Positions 5,516 through 31,427 of a DNA stretch of 37,642 nt are shown piece after piece (within the stretch, counting starts at the first letter, position 1; each line of letters begins with the position of its first letter). The DNA lies in UHGV virus genome UHGV-0029174, one strand, 5' to 3'. Below the pieces are notes generated by a model. It ran no database searches, was not told the DNA's origin, and was given only the letters and a program-made list of their open reading frames with translations. Origin of the DNA: a virus. The translations under genes were made by a program, and so were the position numbers.

Positions 5516-5531
5516 TGTGATCGCTGTCACG
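5516..5531. promoter_or_regulatory. CRP-like palindrome TGTGA-N6-TCACg centred ~63 bp upstream of the predicted start of promoter 5551..5579
   Basis: TGTGATCGCTGTCACG; near-identical TGTGATCGCAATCACG at 34021..34036. Confidence 0.4.
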
Positions 5532-5550
5532 CTAAATCATACCAAAACGG

Positions 5551-5579
5551 TTGATCGCGATTTTTACAATATGTATATT
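5551..5579 (+). promoter_or_regulatory. sigma70-like promoter (TTGATC-N17-TATATT) for plus-strand cassette
   Basis: -35 at 5551..5556, 17-nt spacer, -10 at 5574..5579, upstream of SD AAGGAA and ATG 5596. Confidence 0.5.
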
Positions 5580-5595
5580 GTACTCAAAAGGAAGC

Positions 5596-5829
5596 ATGGT
5601 TAACAAAATGGCGCGGAGGTATGAGGTGGATGATAAGGTGTGGAGGTTGACGGTGTTCCTTAGTGATGGCAGGGAAATGACTGTTGCCCTGTATAAAGAT
5701 GAAGGCGAGGCACTTACTGACGCGCTATTACTCGCTGAAGACGAAAGGGTTTTGGGGTACAGGATTAAACCTGTCAAATGGGAGGTTATAACAAAAAATG
5801 AAAAAATACAGGTTAGACGTGTGGACTGA
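5596..5829 (+). CDS. hypothetical protein (78 aa), first gene of antisense cassette between L and M
   Basis: ATG 5596 with SD AAGGAA; in frame with track ORF 5551..5829. Confidence 0.5.
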   Translation: MVNKMARRYEVDDKVWRLTVFLSDGREMTVALYKDEGEALTDALLLAEDERVLGYRIKPVKWEVITKNEKIQVRRVD

Positions 5830-6148
5830 TAAATGCGAATGGGAAAGCATGGGGCTATTTGACACATTTGAATCAGCGCGTGATGAAGGTTGCGAATTGC
5901 TCCGCTGTTGGTCTAACGCTCGTGATTATTATGTTATTCCTGTACAAGTACCGGATAAGGCGGAAGAGATGAACCCGAAAGACATTAACTTTAACGTCAA
6001 TGTTGAATTCGCTGATTCTATGGATCAGTCTTGCCCTGGTGAAATACACGCAAAAGGTTTCCCGGCAGACAATCCAGAAGCAAAACGCGAATACGAAAAA
6101 GCTGCGAAAGACTTCTGCATAGATAACCTGGGCGCATTCGATAAATAA
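5798..6148 (+). CDS. hypothetical acidic protein (116 aa)
   Basis: Track ORF; overlaps upstream gene end; GGGAGG upstream. Confidence 0.5.
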   Translation: MKKYRLDVWTDKCEWESMGLFDTFESARDEGCELLRCWSNARDYYVIPVQVPDKAEEMNPKDINFNVNVEFADSMDQSCPGEIHAKGFPADNPEAKREYEKAAKDFCIDNLGAFDK

Positions 6149-6157
6149 GGCGGCAAC

Positions 6158-6406
6158 ATGGGGCGGCGCAATCACGGTGATTATGTGTACACGTTGAAAC
6201 AGGCCGCCCGCCTCATCGGTTATCATGAGCACGAATTTATTGATTTGCTGATTGAGCGCGGGATACTGTACCAGGTCTGTTTAACACTGTACCCAAAAGC
6301 GAAATACCTACAGGAAAAGTTATTCATCATCATGACGGATGAAAACCAGGTTAATCATTCATTCGTCACTGATAAGGGCGTTAATTATCTGCGTGATAAC
6401 TTATAG
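6158..6406 (+). CDS. hypothetical protein with HTH-like segment (TLKQAARLIG...IERGIL), possible DNA-binding regulator
   Basis: Track ORF; SD AAGGCGG; HTH call is by eye. Confidence 0.45.
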   Translation: MGRRNHGDYVYTLKQAARLIGYHEHEFIDLLIERGILYQVCLTLYPKAKYLQEKLFIIMTDENQVNHSFVTDKGVNYLRDNL

Positions 6407-6416
6407 GTGACAGATT

Positions 6417-6533
6417 ATGAAAATAGAAGTTTTGGCGCTAATAATAATGGGATTGATAGTGTTTGGCGTTCATGCTGTAGATCTGGACTGGAAAACGATA
6501 GCGGAAAATATAGCGTTAATGGAAATGGGATAA
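6417..6533 (+). CDS. small membrane peptide (38 aa, MKIEVLALIIMGLIVFGVHA...)
   Basis: ATG 6417 with SD AGGTGA; hydrophobic N-terminus; ends just before terminator hairpin; below track size cut-off. Confidence 0.35.
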   Translation: MKIEVLALIIMGLIVFGVHAVDLDWKTIAENIALMEMG

Positions 6534-6537
6534 TAAT

Positions 6538-6566
6538 AACCCCGCCGTGGCGGGGTGTTTTTTTTA
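6538..6566 (+). terminator. rho-independent terminator (CCCCGCC-gtg-GCGGGG then T8), weaker on the minus strand
   Basis: GC stem-loop followed by TGTTTTTTTT, between convergent genes. Confidence 0.6.
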
Positions 6567-6776
6567 ATCGTAGGATAGAAATGCTACTTCTTTGCCATCC
6601 CAAGTCGTACAGCCGATATATCCATCACCCATGTCATGAAGATACCACGTCTCACCGTTATCAGCCCGTACAGTGAGATCATTAATTTCATAGTCGGCAA
6701 ACAATGTGAAAGCGCCAGTGCGCTCCACTACACAAAAATAAGGCATACCCCCTCCCTTAATTAATAACTTGCTCAA
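6564..6776 (-). CDS. hypothetical protein (70 aa)
   Basis: Track ORF directly downstream of M. Confidence 0.45.
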   Translation of the reverse strand: MSKLLIKGGGMPYFCVVERTGAFTLFADYEINDLTVRADNGETWYLHDMGDGYIGCTTWDGKEVAFLSYD

Positions 6777-7140: not shown

Positions 7141-7178
7141 ATCTTTACGCGCTGCTACGCGAAAAATGAGAAATTCAT
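7141..7178 (-). promoter_or_regulatory. conserved ~38-bp element upstream of M (copy 1; second copy 19364..19400 upstream of portal)
   Basis: Plus strand TTTACGCGCTGCTACGCGAAAAATGAGAAATTC vs TTTACGCGTTGCTACGCGAAAAATAGAAAAATTC. Confidence 0.4.
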
Positions 7179-7198
7179 CACAAGAATTATAACCAGTT

Positions 7199-7238
7199 TA
7201 CAAAATGGCTTCACATAAGGCGTGACAAGATGTATATA
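7199..7238 (+). promoter_or_regulatory. promoter for second plus-strand cassette (ACAAAATGGCTTCACA; -35 TTCACA; -10 TATATA)
   Basis: 15-mer ACAAAATGGCTTCAC identical to 10546..10560; TTCACA-N17-TATATA. Confidence 0.45.
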
Positions 7239-7280
7239 GTAAGCAAGAAGAAAAAGCAGTACCGACAAAGGGGGGGCAAT

Positions 7281-7436
7281 ATGGAACGCTATGTGGTTGT
7301 GATGCTGAACAAAGCATTCGAACAGGTGGAAGTTGCGATTGTGAAGGGCTTTGATGATGCATTCAAATACGGTCAATTCATGATGAATGCAAAAGAAGAT
7401 GAATACCGTGATTTCTTCCTGAAAGTGGTCAACTAA
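7281..7436 (+). CDS. hypothetical protein (51 aa; track ORF 7230..7436 trimmed to ATG with SD GGGGGG)
   Basis: Strong SD before ATG 7281; the predicted promoter places the transcript start inside the longer track ORF. Confidence 0.45.
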   Translation: MERYVVVMLNKAFEQVEVAIVKGFDDAFKYGQFMMNAKEDEYRDFFLKVVN

Positions 7437-7454
7437 TGGATTGTGGGGTGTGTT

Positions 7455-7709
7455 ATGAAATTGGTAGCGATTGGTAAAAATCTGAAAGCACAGAAAAACG
7501 CACAGGACCGGATCATCAAAAAGGGCAAGGCTTTATTAAATGCTTTCCTGAGAAAAGAGGCCACCCCCAAAAAATTACGCGATGGCTACGGTTATAAATT
7601 TGATATTAACCCCGATTGGCGGTTATTCAGCGAAGATTTAAAGGCGTGGTTAATTATCGACCATCTGGAATATAACAGGCACTGTGGGGTGAAAGGCGCT
7701 CACAAGTGA
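7455..7709 (+). CDS. hypothetical basic protein (84 aa)
   Basis: ATG 7455 with SD GGGGTG; in frame with track ORF 7443..7709. Confidence 0.45.
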   Translation: MKLVAIGKNLKAQKNAQDRIIKKGKALLNAFLRKEATPKKLRDGYGYKFDINPDWRLFSEDLKAWLIIDHLEYNRHCGVKGAHK

Positions 7710-7740
7710 CACGGATTTGAATGTTGCGGAGGAAAACAAA

Positions 7741-7911
7741 ATGAAAAACCCGGCAAATAAAAGCAACGTAAAACGCATAGCGTGGGTGCTAAAATATATG
7801 GATAGCAAAGGGGATACATATACATGCCCATTTTTCAGGTATACTGACGCGGTATTTGCCAGAAGTGTACACGGAGGGAAAATTGAAAGAGGATATACAA
7901 GATTTGAGTAA
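7741..7911 (+). CDS. hypothetical protein (56 aa)
   Basis: ATG 7741 with SD GAGGAA; track ORF 7717 uses TTG. Confidence 0.45.
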   Translation: MKNPANKSNVKRIAWVLKYMDSKGDTYTCPFFRYTDAVFARSVHGGKIERGYTRFE

Positions 7912-7949
7912 ATTTATTCACGAAATCAATAACATGATGAAGGTTTATA

Positions 7950-8129
7950 ATGATTATTCACGAGACTGAAGAATGTAGAAGGATTGATCTTAGTGTTGAA
8001 GATGATGGAAGATTATGGATCGTTAGCGACTGCGAGATGATTGTAATAGACAAAAAGCAAGCTGACGAACTGATAAGCGCATTACAGCTTTATGCAAACG
8101 GCGAATTTAAGAATGATGAAATTGAATAA
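7950..8129 (+). CDS. hypothetical acidic protein (59 aa, MIIHETEECRRIDLSVEDDG...)
   Basis: ATG 7950 with SD AAGG; ends 4 nt before terminator; below track size cut-off. Confidence 0.4.
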   Translation: MIIHETEECRRIDLSVEDDGRLWIVSDCEMIVIDKKQADELISALQLYANGEFKNDEIE

Positions 8130-8132
8130 AGA

Positions 8133-8162
8133 TAGCCCCGGCATTGTGCCGGGGTTTTGTTT
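8133..8162. terminator. terminator hairpin between convergent plus cassette and tape measure gene
   Basis: 8-bp stem CCCCGGCA/TGCCGGGG, 3-nt loop, then TTTTGTTTATTT on plus strand. Confidence 0.65.
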
Positions 8163-10503
8163 ATTTCCTGCGAGGTTGTAACATCCCTCCGGGCCGTTGC
8201 GATTCCCTTGCCATCATTTTCATCGCGACGCGTTCCATCGTCTGTTCAAGTCTGCGACTGTCTTCGTCGCTAAATCCGTTTGTGGTCTGTACGGTGATGT
8301 TAACAGGCATATTGATGCCGCCACCACTGAAGAGATCGCGACCAGGAATTACCCTACCATTCTCGCCAGGAATCATATACTGACGCCCGTTGCTCGTCTG
8401 GAATAGCTCTGGTATCCCGTGTTCCCCTACGCGATACAGGCTACCACCATTAACAGAACCACCATTATAACGCCCGCCACCAAAGATTGACGTTGCCAGC
8501 GACATGATCGCAGAAAGCGCCGCAGCACCAGCCGCCGCCCAGCTACCACCAGTTGACGCCGCAGTCGCCGCCGCCGCCGGGGCCGCCGCCGCTGCAATCT
8601 GGCCTTGTGCCGCTACCGCACCAGCCGTGGTACTTGCTTGCGTGGCCTTGCTCTGTGTTTCCATCATCAACTGATCTGCTATCCAGTTGGCGGCAATTTC
8701 TGACAGTTTGTTGCCAACGGTGTTAAGTATGCTGCTTCCCAGGTTGGCAAAGACCTCGCTTAACGATTGAGTACCGTTTAGCAGGCCGGTAAGGGCATTA
8801 CCCATGCCACCCTTTAGGCCGCTAACACAAGCACCAATCAGGCTGTTTGTGTCGCTTTGCGCCTGCCATTGTTCCCATTTCAGATCCCGGATCTGTTGTT
8901 CGTGTTCCAATTGCGCTTGTCTCTGTTGCGCCTCTGTAGCGCCCAGGTCCAATAGCATTTGCTTTCTTACTGCCCATTCATTCTGTGCCTGTTTGATTGG
9001 GTCAATTTCGCCCTTAAGCTGGTCCATTGGACTAACTATTTGCGACCATTTATCACGCAATTCATCTACAGGGATTTGCGCTAATTCTTCCTTCAGTTCT
9101 TTGCCGATCCCTTTTTGCGCTGCGCGGTATTCAAGGAGTGTGATTTTACCCTGGGCGAATGCAGCATCAATGGCCTTGCCGTTCTCTAACGCTTTGCGCA
9201 TAGCGGCGGCGTCTTTGTTGTACTGGTCAGAAACGCTTATGCCTTTGTCACCAAGCCGATCAGCTTCAGATTTCTTCTCTTTTTTCTGTTTTTTCGGTTT
9301 GTCTACTGGCTTGTCGAATCCGGTAATCGCTCCGTCATTGGCGGCATTCTGTTCATTTTTCCTTGCTTCCTCTGTAGCCTGGATTGCTGCGGTCAGATCA
9401 TCCTGTAATTGCATGACCTTGCCAACGGTCTTACCGTATTTCTTCTCGTAGTTGCTGTTATATTCGTCGGTTTGCTCTCCTGCGACCTCCTTCATCCATT
9501 TGTAGGCGTCCATTAGTGCCTTGATTGGCGTCACCATTGCGATGATCTTCTCGGCCACCTCGCCAGCCTTGATTCTGACATCTTCAAACATGTCGATGAA
9601 TTCGCCACCAGCCGTCTTCAGGGTGTTAAAGCAGGTTTTAGCGAAATCAGCGCCTTCACCTAAAGCCTTAACACCTTTCGTTACAAGATCGATACCAGCA
9701 ACAACCGTATCGGATACACCGAAAAGATCATCCAATTGTTCAACAAGTCCCATAACCTCGACTTTAAGCTCATTCAGAGCCATGCCGGATGTGCGCGGCA
9801 ACTGCGCAAACTTCTCGTTTGTTTCCTGCGTAGCCGCCTGGATCGCGTTAACCATCCTTTCTGCCGTGATCTTACCGTCCAGCATTTCGGCGCGGAATTG
9901 GCCCATTGATAACCCCATCTGGCGGGCCATTGTCTGTACGATGGTCGGGGTGTTTTCTAACAGGCTATTGAATTCTTCAGCACGCAACACGCCACCGTCG
10001 ATAGACTGACGGAATTGACGCATTGAGTTTGACATCTGCTCCGCTGACGCGCCGCCCAACGCCCCCATTTTCTGAATCGTACCTACCAGGTTAAGCAATT
10101 GCCCTTCAGTGGCGGACGTGTTCTTCAGTGAGATAGCCAGACCTTGCCATAGTTCGCCAGTATCCTTCAGGCTTTGCCCAGTTTCCCTGGATATTGCTTT
10201 CAGCCCGTCGAAAACCCGTCCGGCGGACTCCGCATCGCCCGTAAGCATTTTGATTTTTACGCGAAGCATTTTTGCTTGCTCCGCCATATCCATGAATTGG
10301 CGCACAGCCTCCGCAGCAATTAGCAAATGGATAACCCTGGTCAGTGCCTTGATGGATGTTTTCAGGGTGTTTACCTGGCGGTCAGCCTGTTTTGCGCCGC
10401 GCTCTATACGGTCAAAAGCCTGGTCGGCCTGGCGTTGTGCAACGAGAAGTTGACCAGTTTTCGCGTCAACTTCGTAATAAATTGTACCTACACTGGTTGC
10501 CAT
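8161..10503 (-). CDS. tail tape measure protein (780 aa)
   Basis: Largest ORF in tail module, upstream of M-L-K-I-J; helical Q/A/E-rich composition with Gly/Ala-rich C-terminal segment. Confidence 0.85.
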   Translation of the reverse strand: MATSVGTIYYEVDAKTGQLLVAQRQADQAFDRIERGAKQADRQVNTLKTSIKALTRVIHLLIAAEAVRQFMDMAEQAKMLRVKIKMLTGDAESAGRVFDGLKAISRETGQSLKDTGELWQGLAISLKNTSATEGQLLNLVGTIQKMGALGGASAEQMSNSMRQFRQSIDGGVLRAEEFNSLLENTPTIVQTMARQMGLSMGQFRAEMLDGKITAERMVNAIQAATQETNEKFAQLPRTSGMALNELKVEVMGLVEQLDDLFGVSDTVVAGIDLVTKGVKALGEGADFAKTCFNTLKTAGGEFIDMFEDVRIKAGEVAEKIIAMVTPIKALMDAYKWMKEVAGEQTDEYNSNYEKKYGKTVGKVMQLQDDLTAAIQATEEARKNEQNAANDGAITGFDKPVDKPKKQKKEKKSEADRLGDKGISVSDQYNKDAAAMRKALENGKAIDAAFAQGKITLLEYRAAQKGIGKELKEELAQIPVDELRDKWSQIVSPMDQLKGEIDPIKQAQNEWAVRKQMLLDLGATEAQQRQAQLEHEQQIRDLKWEQWQAQSDTNSLIGACVSGLKGGMGNALTGLLNGTQSLSEVFANLGSSILNTVGNKLSEIAANWIADQLMMETQSKATQASTTAGAVAAQGQIAAAAAPAAAATAASTGGSWAAAGAAALSAIMSLATSIFGGGRYNGGSVNGGSLYRVGEHGIPELFQTSNGRQYMIPGENGRVIPGRDLFSGGGINMPVNITVQTTNGFSDEDSRRLEQTMERVAMKMMARESQRPGGMLQPRRK

Positions 10504-10545
10504 GATTTAACCTCATGAAAATTGTGATCTAGATCTCTATTCTAT

Positions 10546-10584
10546 ACAAAATGGCTTCACTTCAACGAATACATTTTGTATAAA
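10546..10584 (+). promoter_or_regulatory. promoter (TTCACT-N17-TATAAA) embedded in inverted repeat TACAAAATG-N18-CATTTTGTA
   Basis: 15-mer identical to 7199..7213; 9-bp inverted repeat arms span -35 to -10. Confidence 0.5.
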
Positions 10585-10661
10585 GAAGACAAAGGAAAGG
10601 GATAGAGTAAAGGGGTTTGAAAGGACCGGATAAACCGGAGGAAGCAAAAGAGGATAAGAAA

Positions 10662-10751
10662 ATGAAAAACGTAAACTACCGTCCCAACGAACATGAGCGC
10701 TATGCAGACTTTATCGAAGAAATGTTAAAATCACTTAAAAACAAAAACTAA
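10662..10751 (+). CDS. small ORF (29 aa, MKNVNYRPNEHERYADFIEEMLKSLKNKN)
   Basis: ATG 10662 with SD AAGAGGA at the end of a GA-rich leader; below track size cut-off. Confidence 0.3.
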   Translation: MKNVNYRPNEHERYADFIEEMLKSLKNKN

Positions 10752-10764
10752 ACGGGGGTGGGTT

Positions 10765-11262
10765 ATGAAGCGGTTAGTAAAAGTTGCGGTAGCTGCGGTC
10801 ATGGCGGTATTCGCGGTCAATGCAAATGCAAATAATGAAGTTAGCAAGATGTGTGATGTGCTGTATCCAGCCTACGAACAAGCATATACAATGGCAAATG
10901 CAAACTTCTTTTCAATTGGCAGACACGGCATTAACTGGGAATATTTCATCTTAAATGAAGATAGCAGGACCAAAAAAGGTGACGCTGAAATGATAAAAGC
11001 GCACGGTGAAAGTTTCGCTTTCGTGATGGCTGCTGCTGAAAATAAACAAAATGACAATGAATTTAAAAACTTTGTCGCTGGACTTGCCATCATGGCTGCT
11101 GAACGGGCGGTAAAAGATCACGACAACAACGCTTATGACGCTGCCGACGGGATGGCATTAGATAGGGTAAGAATTGACTTCAAAAACATGTGCGTCAAAG
11201 AAGGCGCTAACATGTATAAAAAAGTAATAGATAAACACCACGAATATTATATAGGTTATTAA
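10765..11262 (+). CDS. secreted/periplasmic protein with signal peptide (165 aa), antisense within tail module
   Basis: SD GGGGGTGGG; N-terminal MKRLVKVAVAAVMAVFAVNANA signal-peptide-like; own promoter and terminator. Confidence 0.6.
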   Translation: MKRLVKVAVAAVMAVFAVNANANNEVSKMCDVLYPAYEQAYTMANANFFSIGRHGINWEYFILNEDSRTKKGDAEMIKAHGESFAFVMAAAENKQNDNEFKNFVAGLAIMAAERAVKDHDNNAYDAADGMALDRVRIDFKNMCVKEGANMYKKVIDKHHEYYIGY

Positions 11263-11292
11263 AAAAGGCCCGGCTAATCCCGGGCTTTTTCT
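11263..11292. terminator. bidirectional rho-independent terminator (GCCCGG-ctaat-CCGGGC flanked by A6 and T5)
   Basis: A-run/stem-loop/T-run readable on both strands between convergent genes. Confidence 0.7.
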
Positions 11293-11963
11293 TGCTCGCT
11301 ATTTTCCATTCTTTTTAGTATCTCCATAGCCTCCCTCATTCCATCGTCATAAGCCTTTTTATCCAGTAATACATCTGGTCGTTTTTGTTTGTTTCTTGCT
11401 TCTGGCGGCGTTTTAGCACGCACAGCGGCCCTATATCCGGTCATTGTCATGCCCCATGCTTCAGATTCAGACAATCCCAGGTGAGCAACGGCAGAATAAA
11501 CATACTCAAGGATGTCGAATGTCTGCTTATAGTCGCCTTCCTGCTCCTCGCCAGCGTCTTCATCTGGTCCGTCACCAATTAAGCCGTGATACATGCAGTG
11601 TTGCGCCAGCGTGATAACATCATCAACTGGCATTATTCCCGGTTTTAATCTCAATTTACCCGAAGGAGTGAACCAGCATTCGCCTAATAACGGGCCTGTT
11701 TCGTCGTCTGAGCAACATTTCAGTATGTGGATGGATGTTTGCACTATCTCACCATAACACCGCGCCATAATGCGATTGCGGAGGTCTGGATCTGTAGGTA
11801 ATCGTGAAGGGTATTTGCTGCCGTGGATAAGTGCGAAATATTCGACAAGCTCACTATCATTGCCGATTTTAGCCATCGCAGCAAAGCAAGGATTAAACTC
11901 ATAGCGCTTACCGTTCACCACAGCCGCAAATTGTCCTGTACGAACATGGATCATAGTATTCAC
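11274..11963 (-). CDS. tail protein, possibly tail assembly chaperone (229 aa; acidic internal segment)
   Basis: Position between major tail candidate and tape measure; no homology recognised. Confidence 0.35.
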   Translation of the reverse strand: MNTMIHVRTGQFAAVVNGKRYEFNPCFAAMAKIGNDSELVEYFALIHGSKYPSRLPTDPDLRNRIMARCYGEIVQTSIHILKCCSDDETGPLLGECWFTPSGKLRLKPGIMPVDDVITLAQHCMYHGLIGDGPDEDAGEEQEGDYKQTFDILEYVYSAVAHLGLSESEAWGMTMTGYRAAVRAKTPPEARNKQKRPDVLLDKKAYDDGMREAMEILKRMENSEQEKARD

Positions 11964-26415: not shown

Positions 26416-26727
26416 TTAAAATTCTGCACCAGGTAAGCTACGCGCTTTATTTACCGCATCGTGTTTTAACGATAAACCAGCGTGATAATTCATAATCCCC
26501 ATATTACCAACCGGTATTTCATTATTTTCTGCCTTTATTCTTAACAACTGGTTTTTAGTGAAGATCCTGTCTCCATCAGTGATATATAACCAGTCGCCGC
26601 GCTTACCAACAACAACATGAGATCTGCCTAAGCTGTCTTTAAATTCATAATTGCAGAAAACATCACCTTTAGGCACTTCAACAAAACAGCACGCAATGAA
26701 CTTATCGCTTTTCATGATTTTGCCCAT
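26416..26727 (-). CDS. hypothetical protein (103 aa)
   Basis: Track ORF; first gene after internal promoter/palindrome. Confidence 0.5.
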   Translation of the reverse strand: MGKIMKSDKFIACCFVEVPKGDVFCNYEFKDSLGRSHVVVGKRGDWLYITDGDRIFTKNQLLRIKAENNEIPVGNMGIMNYHAGLSLKHDAVNKARSLPGAEF

Positions 26728-26744: not shown

Positions 26745-26785
26745 ATATATAACAAAATGGCACTGCCTAAACAATGCCATTTCGT
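26745..26785 (-). promoter_or_regulatory. internal promoter-like element with palindrome ACAAAATGGCA-N12-TGCCATTTcGT and extended -10 (TGT-TATATA)
   Basis: 11-bp inverted arms with 1 mismatch; minus strand CCATTTTGTTATATA upstream of ATG 26727. Confidence 0.4.
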
Positions 26786-26827
26786 ATACATTGTGATACA
26801 AGTCACATTTTGCGCAATTAACTTTTA

Positions 26828-28968: not shown

Positions 28969-29370
28969 TCACCCCCACATATTAGTTTCGTATTCACCAA
29001 TATCCGGTAGCAGGTCGCCGCGTTCGCGAACCTTAATAAACAATCGCCCGCCTTTTACCTTCCGGCAGCGAACAAACTTCATTACGTCAACCTGGCTGTC
29101 ATCGGCCCAAAAACCGGAATAAGTTATAGCGTCAAACAATGCTTTCCCCACATTATCAATATCACGGCGGCGGGCGTCTGGCGGGGCAATATACACGGTT
29201 ATTGATAATCTGCATTGAAGACTTATATCAAGATTGAGTAGCTCTATAATATCCTTCACCTGCTCCCTGTATTCTTTACCTTCCTTGCTTATGTAGTTGA
29301 CTCCCCTGGCATGGCGGTAATATTTATTCGCCGTTGGCGGATACGGAAGTGTCATAGTGTATTCGTTCAT
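28969..29370 (-). CDS. rusA: Holliday junction resolvase RusA
   Basis: MNEYTMTLPYPPTANKYYRHARG and APPDARRRDIDNVGKALFDA resemble E. coli RusA (TLPWPPSNNRYYRH; DRRRRDLDN); ATG 29370 with SD GGTGA. Confidence 0.85.
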   Translation of the reverse strand: MNEYTMTLPYPPTANKYYRHARGVNYISKEGKEYREQVKDIIELLNLDISLQCRLSITVYIAPPDARRRDIDNVGKALFDAITYSGFWADDSQVDVMKFVRCRKVKGGRLFIKVRERGDLLPDIGEYETNMWG

Positions 29371-29851
29371 TTCTGTCACCATGTCCAGAGTGAAAATTAT
29401 ATTTTATCTCTGCTTCCTCTCTTGCTTTAACAGCATCGCTAAAGCTATCAAAATACCCTAAATTATAAAGCACCCCTTTAACTCTTATATATGAATGCCA
29501 TTTACTTAACGGCTTATACCAACGAACACCGACCCTACCACTCTTATTTCTTGAGCTTAAACTAGCATTTTTCATGTTTTCTTCATGAGTTACTAACCTT
29601 AAATTTTCTATTCTGTTGTTATATGGTATATGGTCCAAATGATCTATCTCGTAACCTTTAGGAATCGGGCCGTTAAACATTTCCCAAATAATACAATGGC
29701 AAAGATGATGTTTATACTTGTACATCACCCTTACATAACCTATCCCAAATCTATTTCCGGCGATGTCACCTTTATTGACGTTCCCGCTAGGTTTTATTTT
29801 CCAGTATAAGATTCCGTCGTTGTATTCAAATATATCATGCCAATTAATCAT
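29324..29851 (-). CDS. HNH homing endonuclease (HNH_3-like/AP2-like) between ninG and rusA
   Basis: IWEMFNGPIPKGYEIDHLDH...NNRIENLRLVTHEEN; overlaps rusA 5' end by 47 nt. Confidence 0.8.
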   Translation of the reverse strand: MINWHDIFEYNDGILYWKIKPSGNVNKGDIAGNRFGIGYVRVMYKYKHHLCHCIIWEMFNGPIPKGYEIDHLDHIPYNNRIENLRLVTHEENMKNASLSSRNKSGRVGVRWYKPLSKWHSYIRVKGVLYNLGYFDSFSDAVKAREEAEIKYNFHSGHGDRNERIHYDTSVSANGE

Positions 29852-30644: not shown

Positions 30645-30724
30645 AATGCTCTCTCCTTTTCAGGTGATTTCTACGCATTTCAGCGCTGCCGGATTTTTAA
30701 AGAGCATTTCTTTTGCTTGAAGTA

Positions 30725-30799
30725 TACAAAATGGATACGTGCAAACAAGACGAAAAGCGCCATTATGTGACATCAATCACACAATGACGCCATTTTGTA
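30725..30799. promoter_or_regulatory. inverted repeat TACAAAATGG ... CCATTTTGTA (10-bp arms, 55-bp spacer) with -10-like TATACT on minus strand
   Basis: Same ACAAAATGG / CCATTTTGT motif as at 7199, 10546 and 26752; upstream of ninF-like gene. Confidence 0.35.
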
Positions 30800-30899
30800 A
30801 ATTTCAGTCCGGTAAAGCGCGGTTGAGCGTAGTACGATTGATGGCCCGGTCGTTAGCCAGGAATACAGCACGGGCGAAGCCGCGCGGCGGTGGCTTGTT

Positions 30900-31427
30900 C
30901 TATTTGCCGTGGTTTTCGTGATATCCATACTCTTTTTCAGCGTCGCGCCGCGCTTTTATTGCGTCATTAATATCAGAAAAACAACCTATATAAATCCTAT
31001 TGCCTCTTTTGCCTCCTCCTATTCTAACAACCCATTTCCCATGTTTGTTTTTATGTACGCCAGTACATCCACTGGTATTGTTTACCATCAAAGACATGTT
31101 GCGCATATTATCTTTATGGTCCTTTAATCCAAGATTTACTGCTCTGTTATCTGTTTTAATGTGATTTATATGATCAACCTCCTTTCCTTCAGGTATTGGG
31201 CCATAGTACATCTCATAACATATTCTGTGAACTTTTAAATTATAACGCTTTCCACCAACGGTAAGCGCTGTATTAAGATACCCACCGCTACCGCCAATAT
31301 GTCCAACTTCATGACCAGCATTACACGCATTCCATTGTTTACGCCTTGATTCTTCTATGTCATTTCTATATTTCCAGTACAACTTACCTGTATCTGGATT
31401 GTATATAAAATAATCATCCCAATTCAT
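30900..31427 (-). CDS. HNH homing endonuclease (HNH_3-like/AP2-like)
   Basis: EVDHINH...DNRAVNLGLKDHKDN and C-terminal AP2-like segment; third paralog. Confidence 0.8.
   Translation of the reverse strand: MNWDDYFIYNPDTGKLYWKYRNDIEESRRKQWNACNAGHEVGHIGGSGGYLNTALTVGGKRYNLKVHRICYEMYYGPIPEGKEVDHINHIKTDNRAVNLGLKDHKDNMRNMSLMVNNTSGCTGVHKNKHGKWVVRIGGGKRGNRIYIGCFSDINDAIKARRDAEKEYGYHENHGK

Follow-up and report, generated by a model that had tools for sequence, protein, structure and literature searches.

What is a small gene for a secreted protein doing on the opposite strand of a phage tail operon? The question is raised by positions 10,504 to 11,292 of the virus genome UHGV-0029174, a stretch of 37,642 nucleotides (nt; the window throughout) that belongs, by its match in gene order to Enterobacteria phage mEp021, to a temperate mEp021-like Escherichia coli phage of the mEpimmI group. 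mEp021 is the archetype of the recently described mEpimmI phages, which are non-lambdoid, Nus-dependent temperate coliphages (PMC11893012). The minus strand carries almost all window genes, and the unit studied here lies antisense to the tail genes, between the tape-measure gene and the DUF6246 gene. An earlier note, made from the sequence alone, had described a separate plus-strand unit encoding a 165-amino-acid (aa) protein, and this description holds: an open reading frame (ORF) is accompanied by a promoter-like site and a terminator. The explanation that we find best overall, and consider somewhat more likely than not, is that the unit is a moron with a conserved platform, a swapped cargo and an envelope-protective product.

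We compared about 52 loci over the slot that separates DUF6246 from the tape-measure gene; the set comprised E. coli prophages and phages and IMG/VR contigs found via DUF6246. An insert of 620-1380 bp is present in all mEpimmI-like loci, every time on the strand opposite to the tail genes. In the distant DUF6246 relatives L064 and L065 the insert is absent, and the tape-measure gene starts about 63 nt after DUF6246. The guanine plus cytosine content is 0.406 in the cargo gene and 0.364 in the conserved platform described below, against 0.516 in the tape-measure gene and 0.465 in DUF6246. Because the insert is missing from distant relatives, runs on the opposite strand and deviates in base composition, we classify the unit, on sequence grounds, as a moron, that is, an accessory transcription unit. 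It is extra DNA between genes that are adjacent in relatives, with its own terminator and a deviant composition, and its promoter-like TTCACT-N17-TATAAA is conserved in the roughly 52 loci under strong constraint, although a promoter scanner did not call the site. The region does not correspond to a conserved tail accessory protein, an identity that would have spoken against the earlier note, as the cargo differs between close relatives and the slot is empty in L064 and L065.

The comparison separates what stays from what changes. The platform, conserved in about 52 loci, consists of the promoter with its palindrome, usually a purine-rich leader with a 29-aa ORF, then a ribosome-binding site, a signal peptide and the terminator. 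In contrast, the first cargo gene of each locus could be sorted into at least six unrelated classes. Class A, a secreted protein of 160-167 aa, is that of the window and occurs in 7 of the roughly 52 slot loci, plus one further locus (L068). Class B is a secreted protein of 137-139 aa (gp63 in mEp021); class C is a 219-aa lipoprotein of the VasI/TagO family (PF11319, 60.5 bits), after which there is often a lipoprotein of 124 aa or a protein of 106 aa; class D is a secreted protein of 116-119 aa (mEp515); class E is a 35-aa plus a 100-aa membrane protein; and class F is a 245-aa lipoprotein. Every one of the classes A to F is thus a signal-peptide, lipoprotein or membrane protein.

The boundaries of the exchange are sharp. 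Between the window and mEp021, nucleotide homology runs from the tape-measure start to position 10832, the signal-peptide cleavage site, and begins again at the stop codon and terminator. Profile comparison with hhalign aligned class A with class B over residues 1-34 only, and with class D over residues 1-29 only, and homology among classes A, B and D beyond the signal peptide was rejected. Where B-type and D-type cargos have a common signal peptide, nucleotide identity is 92% up to the cleavage site and falls to background similarity after it. Since the signal peptide alone is common to the classes, it belongs to the platform and acts as a recombination arm. The arms would then be the signal-peptide region at one end and the terminator with the end of DUF6246 at the other. 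We are highly confident of this architecture, a fixed platform with a mature segment that recombination between these ends has exchanged time and again. The earlier note had given the gene a promoter of its own; a promoter-like site is indeed there, but promoter, leader and signal peptide form a family-wide platform that is native to the phage; the promoter module has a paralogue at 26.8 kb, and its motifs recur at further promoters.

We tentatively propose, with odds that we would put below even, that the slot is an export-ready expression socket kept by the phage family, in which mature domains are swapped at the cleavage site and the terminator. Under this proposal, which we hold no more firmly, envelope products would be diversified like the C-terminal module swaps of polymorphic toxin and immunity loci, and the palindromic module would serve as a portable unit of homology and regulation. 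The PeSL (promoter-early stem-loop) cassettes of T4-type phages offer a possible parallel: in these, a short conserved promoter and stem-loop are repeated in the genome beside variable ORFs, and the repeated copies supply homology for modular shuffling (PMC2839356, PMC4122927). Our module differs from PeSL in phage lineage and in sequence, in a palindrome that overlaps the promoter rather than a preceding terminator, in having one full paralogue plus partial copies, and in a signal-peptide coding region that is also a homology arm.

Table 1 Features of the unit, its neighbours and related promoter modules in the window
Feature	Position	Strand	Remarks
Upstream dyad TGTGATCTAGATCTCT	10523..10538		TGTGA-N6-TCACA at 8/10 positions; centre ~-60.5 from predicted start
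Left arm, 11 bp, TATACAAAATG	10543..10553		directly upstream of -35
Inverted repeat, exact 9 bp, TACAAAATG / CATTTTGTA	10545-10553 / 10572-10580		18-nt gap
-35-like hexamer TTCACT	10556-10561	+	varies among relatives as TT[CT][AG][CT]
Right arm, 11 bp, CATTTTGTATA	10572-10582		overlaps TATAAA 10579-10584
-10-like TATAAA	10579-10584	+	17-nt spacer from TTCACT; overlaps right arm
Predicted leader	10591..10661	+	~71 nt from predicted start ~10591; 83% purine; 7 GGA
29-aa gene MKNVNYRPNEHERYADFIEEMLKSLKNKN	10662..10751	+	conserved; dN/dS 0.04
Ribosome-binding site of cargo gene, GGGGGTGGG	10754..10762	+	cargo gene starts 13 nt past small-ORF stop codon; G-rich core kept across cargo classes
Cargo ORF	10765..11262	+	165 aa
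Signal peptide, 22 codons	10765..10830	+	part of conserved platform
Mature cargo, 143 aa and stop codon	10831..11262	+	predicted four-helix bundle; C30 and C143 of precursor conserved
Bidirectional intrinsic terminator	11262..11292 (stem 11268-11285)		GCCCGG-CTAATC-CCGGGC, flanks A6 and T5; overlaps DUF6246 end
Tape-measure gene	8161..10503	-	Pfam TMP_3
DUF6246 / phrog_791 gene	11274..11963	-	in tail-assembly-chaperone position, directly after tail tube gene
Paralogue of whole promoter module (dyad, inverted repeat, -10)	26752..26810	-	nhmmer E 0.007; in KKa019 E 2.5e-5
Promoter of second antisense island	7167..7238	+	exact 16-mer TACAAAATGGCTTCAC at 7199, then TGTATATA; -10 TATATA; dyad TGAGAAATTCATCACA ~-70.5

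The cargo protein of the window is very probably exported to the periplasm. Its N-terminus, MKRLVKVAVAAVMAVFAVNANA followed by N, opens with a basic n-region (K2, R3 and K6), continues with a hydrophobic core of 12 residues and bears A-N-A at -3/-1. By inspection, this agrees with the Sec and signal peptidase I rules (MKRLVK, then VAVAAVMAVFAV, then NANA with cleavage before N); a lipobox is absent, and the arrangement is conserved in the family. The AlphaFold2 model is disordered over residues 1-20, and sister cargos bear lipoboxes at the equivalent place. These observations bear out the signal-peptide-like N-terminus on which the earlier note had based a secreted product. The model of the cargo has four long helices (predicted local distance difference test score, pLDDT, 72; predicted template modelling score, pTM, 0.72). 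Within class A the cysteines C30 and C143, which probably form one disulfide, and the core motif GLAIMAAER...DRVRIDFK are invariant. The class is under purifying selection (omega 0.14-0.47), with synonymous sites saturated between subfamilies.

Homology and structure searches, which the earlier note had suggested as a check, gave no match by sequence or fold. Pfam (E up to 1), PHROGs, NCBIfam, PADLOC and PDB sequence searches returned nothing for the cargo, the fold search had no match, and the VasI profile (PF11319) did not match it either. Function is therefore not readable from similarity. A search of 5.8 billion proteins and a profile search of 1.84 billion representatives found only seven protein clusters of class A, all of them from E. 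coli prophages and always in the slot between DUF6246 and the tape-measure gene. As far as these searches reach, class A appears to be a new family of secreted proteins that has no relatives outside the slot.

What might such a protein do? The position of the unit recalls HK97 gene 15, the original moron, whose product gp15 excludes superinfecting phages (Juhala et al. 2000; Cumby et al. 2012; PMC3594210). gp15 stops the entry of DNA from the superinfecting phage, in a manner that depends on the incoming tail (PMC3594210). Like the unit described here, gene 15 is an extra unit between the tail-chaperone and tape-measure genes of a temperate E. coli siphophage, with its own promoter (predicted in our case) and terminator, a deviant base composition and a small envelope-located product (again predicted in our case). 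The two differ in that gp15 is a YebO-like inner-membrane protein, whereas our cargo is a predicted periplasmic four-helix protein with a cleaved signal, unrelated in sequence; Pfam, PHROG, NCBIfam and PADLOC gave no match that would tie it to the YebO/gp15 family, and its mature part is modelled as a soluble helical bundle. Unlike gene 15, the unit is also antisense to the tail operon, contains an extra 29-aa gene and has a conserved platform with swapped cargo.

Other exclusion proteins can also be compared. Cor, T5 Llp and TP-J34 Ltp are envelope superinfection-exclusion proteins of temperate siphophages. Together with Lpp021/Lpp010, these proteins resemble the cargo in being small exported proteins encoded in or beside temperate-phage tail genes, and they protect the carrier cell. 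They differ in being lipoproteins at other positions (gp81 in mEp021), whereas the cargo has neither a lipobox nor similarity to them. The mEpimmI phages carry the envelope exclusion proteins Lpp021/Lpp010 at other genome positions, and the paper on these phages does not discuss the slot between DUF6246 and the tape-measure gene (PMC11893012).

Our model has the following steps. Host RNA polymerase would transcribe the unit from its own sigma-70-type promoter. A dimeric DNA-binding protein at the palindrome would control this promoter, perhaps with an activator at the upstream dyad. Sec would export the cargo, with cleavage after ANA, and the periplasmic cargo would protect the envelope of the carrier cell; most likely it would keep the DNA of related phages from entering. 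Our best single guess for the function is thus superinfection exclusion at the step of DNA entry, because HK97 gp15 occupies the same position, all alternative cargos are envelope proteins and mEpimmI phages use envelope exclusion proteins; resting on these analogies, it is a guess that we consider rather doubtful.

The cargo could instead guard the lysogen against periplasm-acting toxins of competitors, such as type VI effectors or colicins, or serve some other aspect of host fitness, and so not be anti-phage at all. We regard this as improbable. A protein predicted to be small, helical, disulfide-bonded and periplasmic would suit such a role; the commonest alternative cargo in the slot is the VasI/TagO-family lipoprotein, which is associated with type VI secretion, and a BamE/DUF7738-like lipoprotein was also found there. 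However, the cargo resembles no known immunity protein in sequence or fold. Immunity genes that occur as orphans tend to be found next to toxin genes as well, whereas class A, with its seven clusters, is restricted to the phage slot.

How the unit is controlled is a second matter. The earlier note had placed the -35 and -10 elements within a 9-bp inverted repeat that looked like an operator, and each of these elements is found where it was described. The inverted repeat can be lengthened to 11 bp, and imperfectly to 23-nt arms; the -35 is situated between the arms. By chance alone, the window should contain about five 9-bp inverted repeats within 40 nt, so the repeat alone is weak evidence. 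More telling are the hairpin z-score, about -4.5 on either strand, and the conservation: TACAAAATGGCTTCAC or a near variant stands at the same offset in all of the roughly 52 related loci, TTTTGTATA, at the right arm and the -10, is invariant in all loci, and upstream of the palindrome TGTGAT is invariant across 37 distinct promoter versions. Among 24 distinct long-leader sequences, nucleotide diversity is 0.024 in the left arm and 0.058 in the right arm with the -10. In the small ORF it is 0.057 at codon positions one and two and 0.24 at the third, and in the promoter spacer it is 0.20. The arms are thus under strong constraint, comparable to that on the first and second positions of a coding sequence, as a regulatory site would be. 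Covariation is weak where conservation is strong: across 26 distinct versions of the arms, a compensatory change from T:A to C:G was seen once, in L006/L007, next to a half-change and two single breaks. We put the chance that the palindrome is a protein-binding operator at slightly better than even.

Several identities for the palindrome or its binder were considered. A terminator was ruled out, as a T run follows the palindrome on neither strand. None of the host regulators OmpR, CpxR, TyrR, LexA, Fur and IHF fitted the palindrome convincingly, and we claim none of them. The immunity region of mEp021 contains related motif copies and no clear operator array of the same dyad. In prophage KKa019 the focal arms are altered symmetrically to ACAAAACG / CGTTTTGT, while the other motif copies remain ACAAAATG; a single shared trans-acting factor is therefore not demonstrated. 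With no clear array and no co-variation in KKa019, the palindrome is at most a candidate CI operator. A separate observation concerns the repressor gene gp15 of mEp021 (L009): its start may have been annotated, at 11218, further downstream than it should be. From an in-frame ATG at 11167 the protein would gain MKTKWYDLAKQLMRAQG, which resembles the beginning of a helix-turn-helix domain.

The palindrome also folds well as RNA, and it might act mainly in the late mRNA of the minus strand, where it lies some 30 nt before the ribosome-binding site of the tape-measure gene, as an element of processing, stability or translation instead of an operator. From the gene order, the late transcript must traverse the region to reach the tape-measure gene, and the minus-strand RNA has a 13-bp stem (-17.7 kcal/mol, z -4.7); the plus-strand transcript does not include the left arm, which precedes the -35. 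Three loci speak against this: the variant shared by L020, L022 and L023, TACAAAATG with CGTTTTGTA, pairs as G-U in the plus-strand RNA, whereas in the minus-strand RNA it leaves A opposite C, a mismatch. Moreover, the left-arm motif beside a -35 recurs without a partner arm (at 7199, and at 11928 in mEp021), and the 26.8-kb paralogue stands in a different mRNA context. We therefore see a role mainly as an RNA hairpin as very unlikely.

Copies of the promoter module elsewhere in the phage bear on the timing of expression. The paralogue at 26752-26810 has the dyad, inverted repeat and -10 in the same order as the focal module, with a different spacer: a perfect dyad TGTGATACAAGTCACA at 26792-26807, the inverted repeat AAATGGCA/TGCCATTT and TATATA. 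It lies upstream of minus-strand accessory genes that start at 26727, in the region from a Q-like gene to the lysis genes, and KKa019 has this module as well (L069, 26336-26404). This is the only full paralogue, and nhmmer found partial copies at 7199 and 30723-30799 (E 0.1 or more). In both mEp021 and KKa019, TATACAAAATGG adjoins the -35 of a strong promoter-like site between the repressor gene and an N-like gene, and the motif also occurs in the nutR2-equivalent region.

One could thus read the unit as a timed lytic-cycle gene: a phage regulator (CI-like, Cro-like or other) would bind the palindrome, and the gene would fire early after infection or induction to yield a product that alters the envelope during the lytic cycle, in the way that Imm and Sp of T4 and Llp of T5, which are early exclusion proteins, do. 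Repressors typically sit where the right arm does, over the -10; the full paralogue drives minus-strand genes between the Q-like gene and the lysis genes; and TATACAAAATGG stands beside a -35 between the repressor and N-like genes, with the motif near the nutR2-equivalent region as well. Set against this, the mEpimmI immunity region lacks a clear array of the same dyad, the KKa019 focal arms have changed while the other copies have not, leaving a single shared factor undemonstrated, and antisense placement with an own terminator is the classic layout of a prophage-expressed moron (PMC3594210). On balance we find this timed expression an unlikely account.

The upstream dyad has counterparts too. 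At class I promoters of CRP, a TGTGA-N6-TCACA dyad is centred near -61.5 or -71.5. The focal dyad, with 8 of 10 positions matching the CRP consensus at about -60.5, is not significant alone. In the whole window, however, five dyads with at most one mismatch were found (at 5516, 7167, 26792, 30766 and 34021) versus about 1.03 expected, and 0 of 100 shuffles reached five. All five are intergenic and several adjoin ACAAAATG motifs. By our own counts, the distance from predicted start to dyad centre at the three antisense islands is about -60.5, -70.5 and -62.5. The binder could be CRP or a phage protein, and the recurrent dyads may reflect a phage-wide regulatory code or CRP dependence.

Taken together, we prefer the moron with conserved platform, swapped cargo and envelope-protective product, and the following points weigh against it. 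The consensus promoter scanner, which needs a T at the last -10 position where the focal site has A, passed over the promoter. The palindrome shows a single covariation event, against three uncompensated changes. The relatives are all fairly close, so recent ancestry accounts for part of the conservation. The signal peptide was assigned by classical rules. HK97 gp15, on which the analogy leans, is an inner-membrane protein unrelated in sequence to the cargo. Finally, a palindrome over the -10, together with a paralogue driving minus-strand genes of the lytic region, could mean repression in lysogens, which would not fit a classical lysogenic-conversion moron.

The remaining parts of the platform lie between promoter and cargo and at the far end. 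The leader is purine-rich with seven GGA motifs, where the earlier note had spoken of several GGA motifs and a length of about 75 nt. It is not structured. Apart from one small hairpin, CCGG at 10626-10629 with CCGG at 10635-10638, it folds more weakly than its shuffles (minimum free energy z +1.69), and an Rfam search gave sub-threshold chance matches only, none of them within the leader. A structured RNA or riboswitch was rejected on these two results, and repeated CsrA sites at the GGA motifs could not be told from plain purine richness. Purine richness and a strong ribosome-binding site adequately explain the leader, which is missing from short-leader relatives.

The 29-aa ORF, which the earlier note had listed as an upstream ORF within the leader, is present and is more than that. 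Of the 52 loci, 32 have it, and their sequences fall into 22 distinct nucleotide versions, with variable sites distributed 9/5/15 over the three codon positions and a mean ratio of nonsynonymous to synonymous rates (dN/dS) of 0.04; the only indel is a single in-frame one of 3 nt, and one alanine codon is seen in all four synonymous forms. The mEp021 record has no annotation for it, and tblastn against phages found it only in mEpimmI phages. Short-leader loci that lack the ORF have cargo classes A and C all the same, and an obligatory leader peptide of the cargo was rejected on this account. The ORF is thus independent of cargo class and, by its pattern of substitution, a real, independent mini-gene. 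In three loci (L040, L048, L056) the leader contains 94 extra nt of purine-rich sequence ahead of the 29-aa gene, and this insertion gives rise to a candidate ORF of 30-32 aa that is rich in lysine and arginine.

At the far end, the hairpin at 11268-11285 has A6 on one side and T5 on the other and therefore reads as a terminator on both strands, in line with the earlier note. The same terminator is annotated in mEp021 and mEp515.

Several further observations concern other parts of the window. A second antisense island (7167-8160, plus strand) lies between a minor tail gene and the tape-measure gene and has four small plus-strand ORFs. One of these, at 7455-7709, encodes a protein with a ParE-like toxin domain (Pfam E 3.7e-11), and the 51-aa ORF before it is a possible antitoxin; a bidirectional-looking terminator at about 8130-8160 closes the island. 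A third antisense island, at 5580-6750, is flanked by a tail L-like gene and the minor tail gene. The promoter-like site of this island, TTGATC-N17-TATATT at 5550-5580 (plus strand), overlaps with TTTACAATATGTATA; some 62 bp ahead of it stands the dyad TGTGATCGCTGTCACG, and relatives encode a KilAC antirepressor-domain protein at this position. At 30722-30801, the inverted pair TATACAAAATGG / CCATTTTGTAAA, 57 nt apart, surrounds a perfect dyad TGTGACATCAATCACA; the counterpart of this stretch in mEp021 is the nutR2 / TERM_4 region, ahead of NinF/NinG-like genes. Three paralogous minus-strand ORFs of 167-175 aa (20892..21395, 29324..29851 and 30900..31427) have the N-terminal motif W.DYF.Y...G.L.WK and HNH-like motifs. 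They resemble scattered free-standing homing endonucleases, and mEp021 labels related genes HNH endonucleases.

The element is of a known kind, a moron in a tail operon. New or unusual are the expression and export platform conserved across a family, with cargo swapped at the signal-peptide boundary; the 29-aa gene that is unannotated in mEp021; the secreted family restricted to the slot; and the promoter module repeated in the genome, which recalls PeSL (PMC2839356). Morons are the main way in which prophages change their hosts, and they have mostly been catalogued gene by gene. About 50 loci with a fixed platform and at least six unrelated envelope cargos provide a natural experiment on the exchange of host-facing phage functions, and they define a promoter and signal-peptide socket that is open to testing or reuse. 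For the gut-prevalent mEpimmI family, our analysis adds a 29-aa gene, a slot-restricted secreted family and a candidate regulatory code (ACAAAATG, TGTGAT-N4-ATCACA). Should the cargo prove to stop DNA injection, HK97 gp15 would have a periplasmic counterpart whose gene adjoins that of the tape measure.

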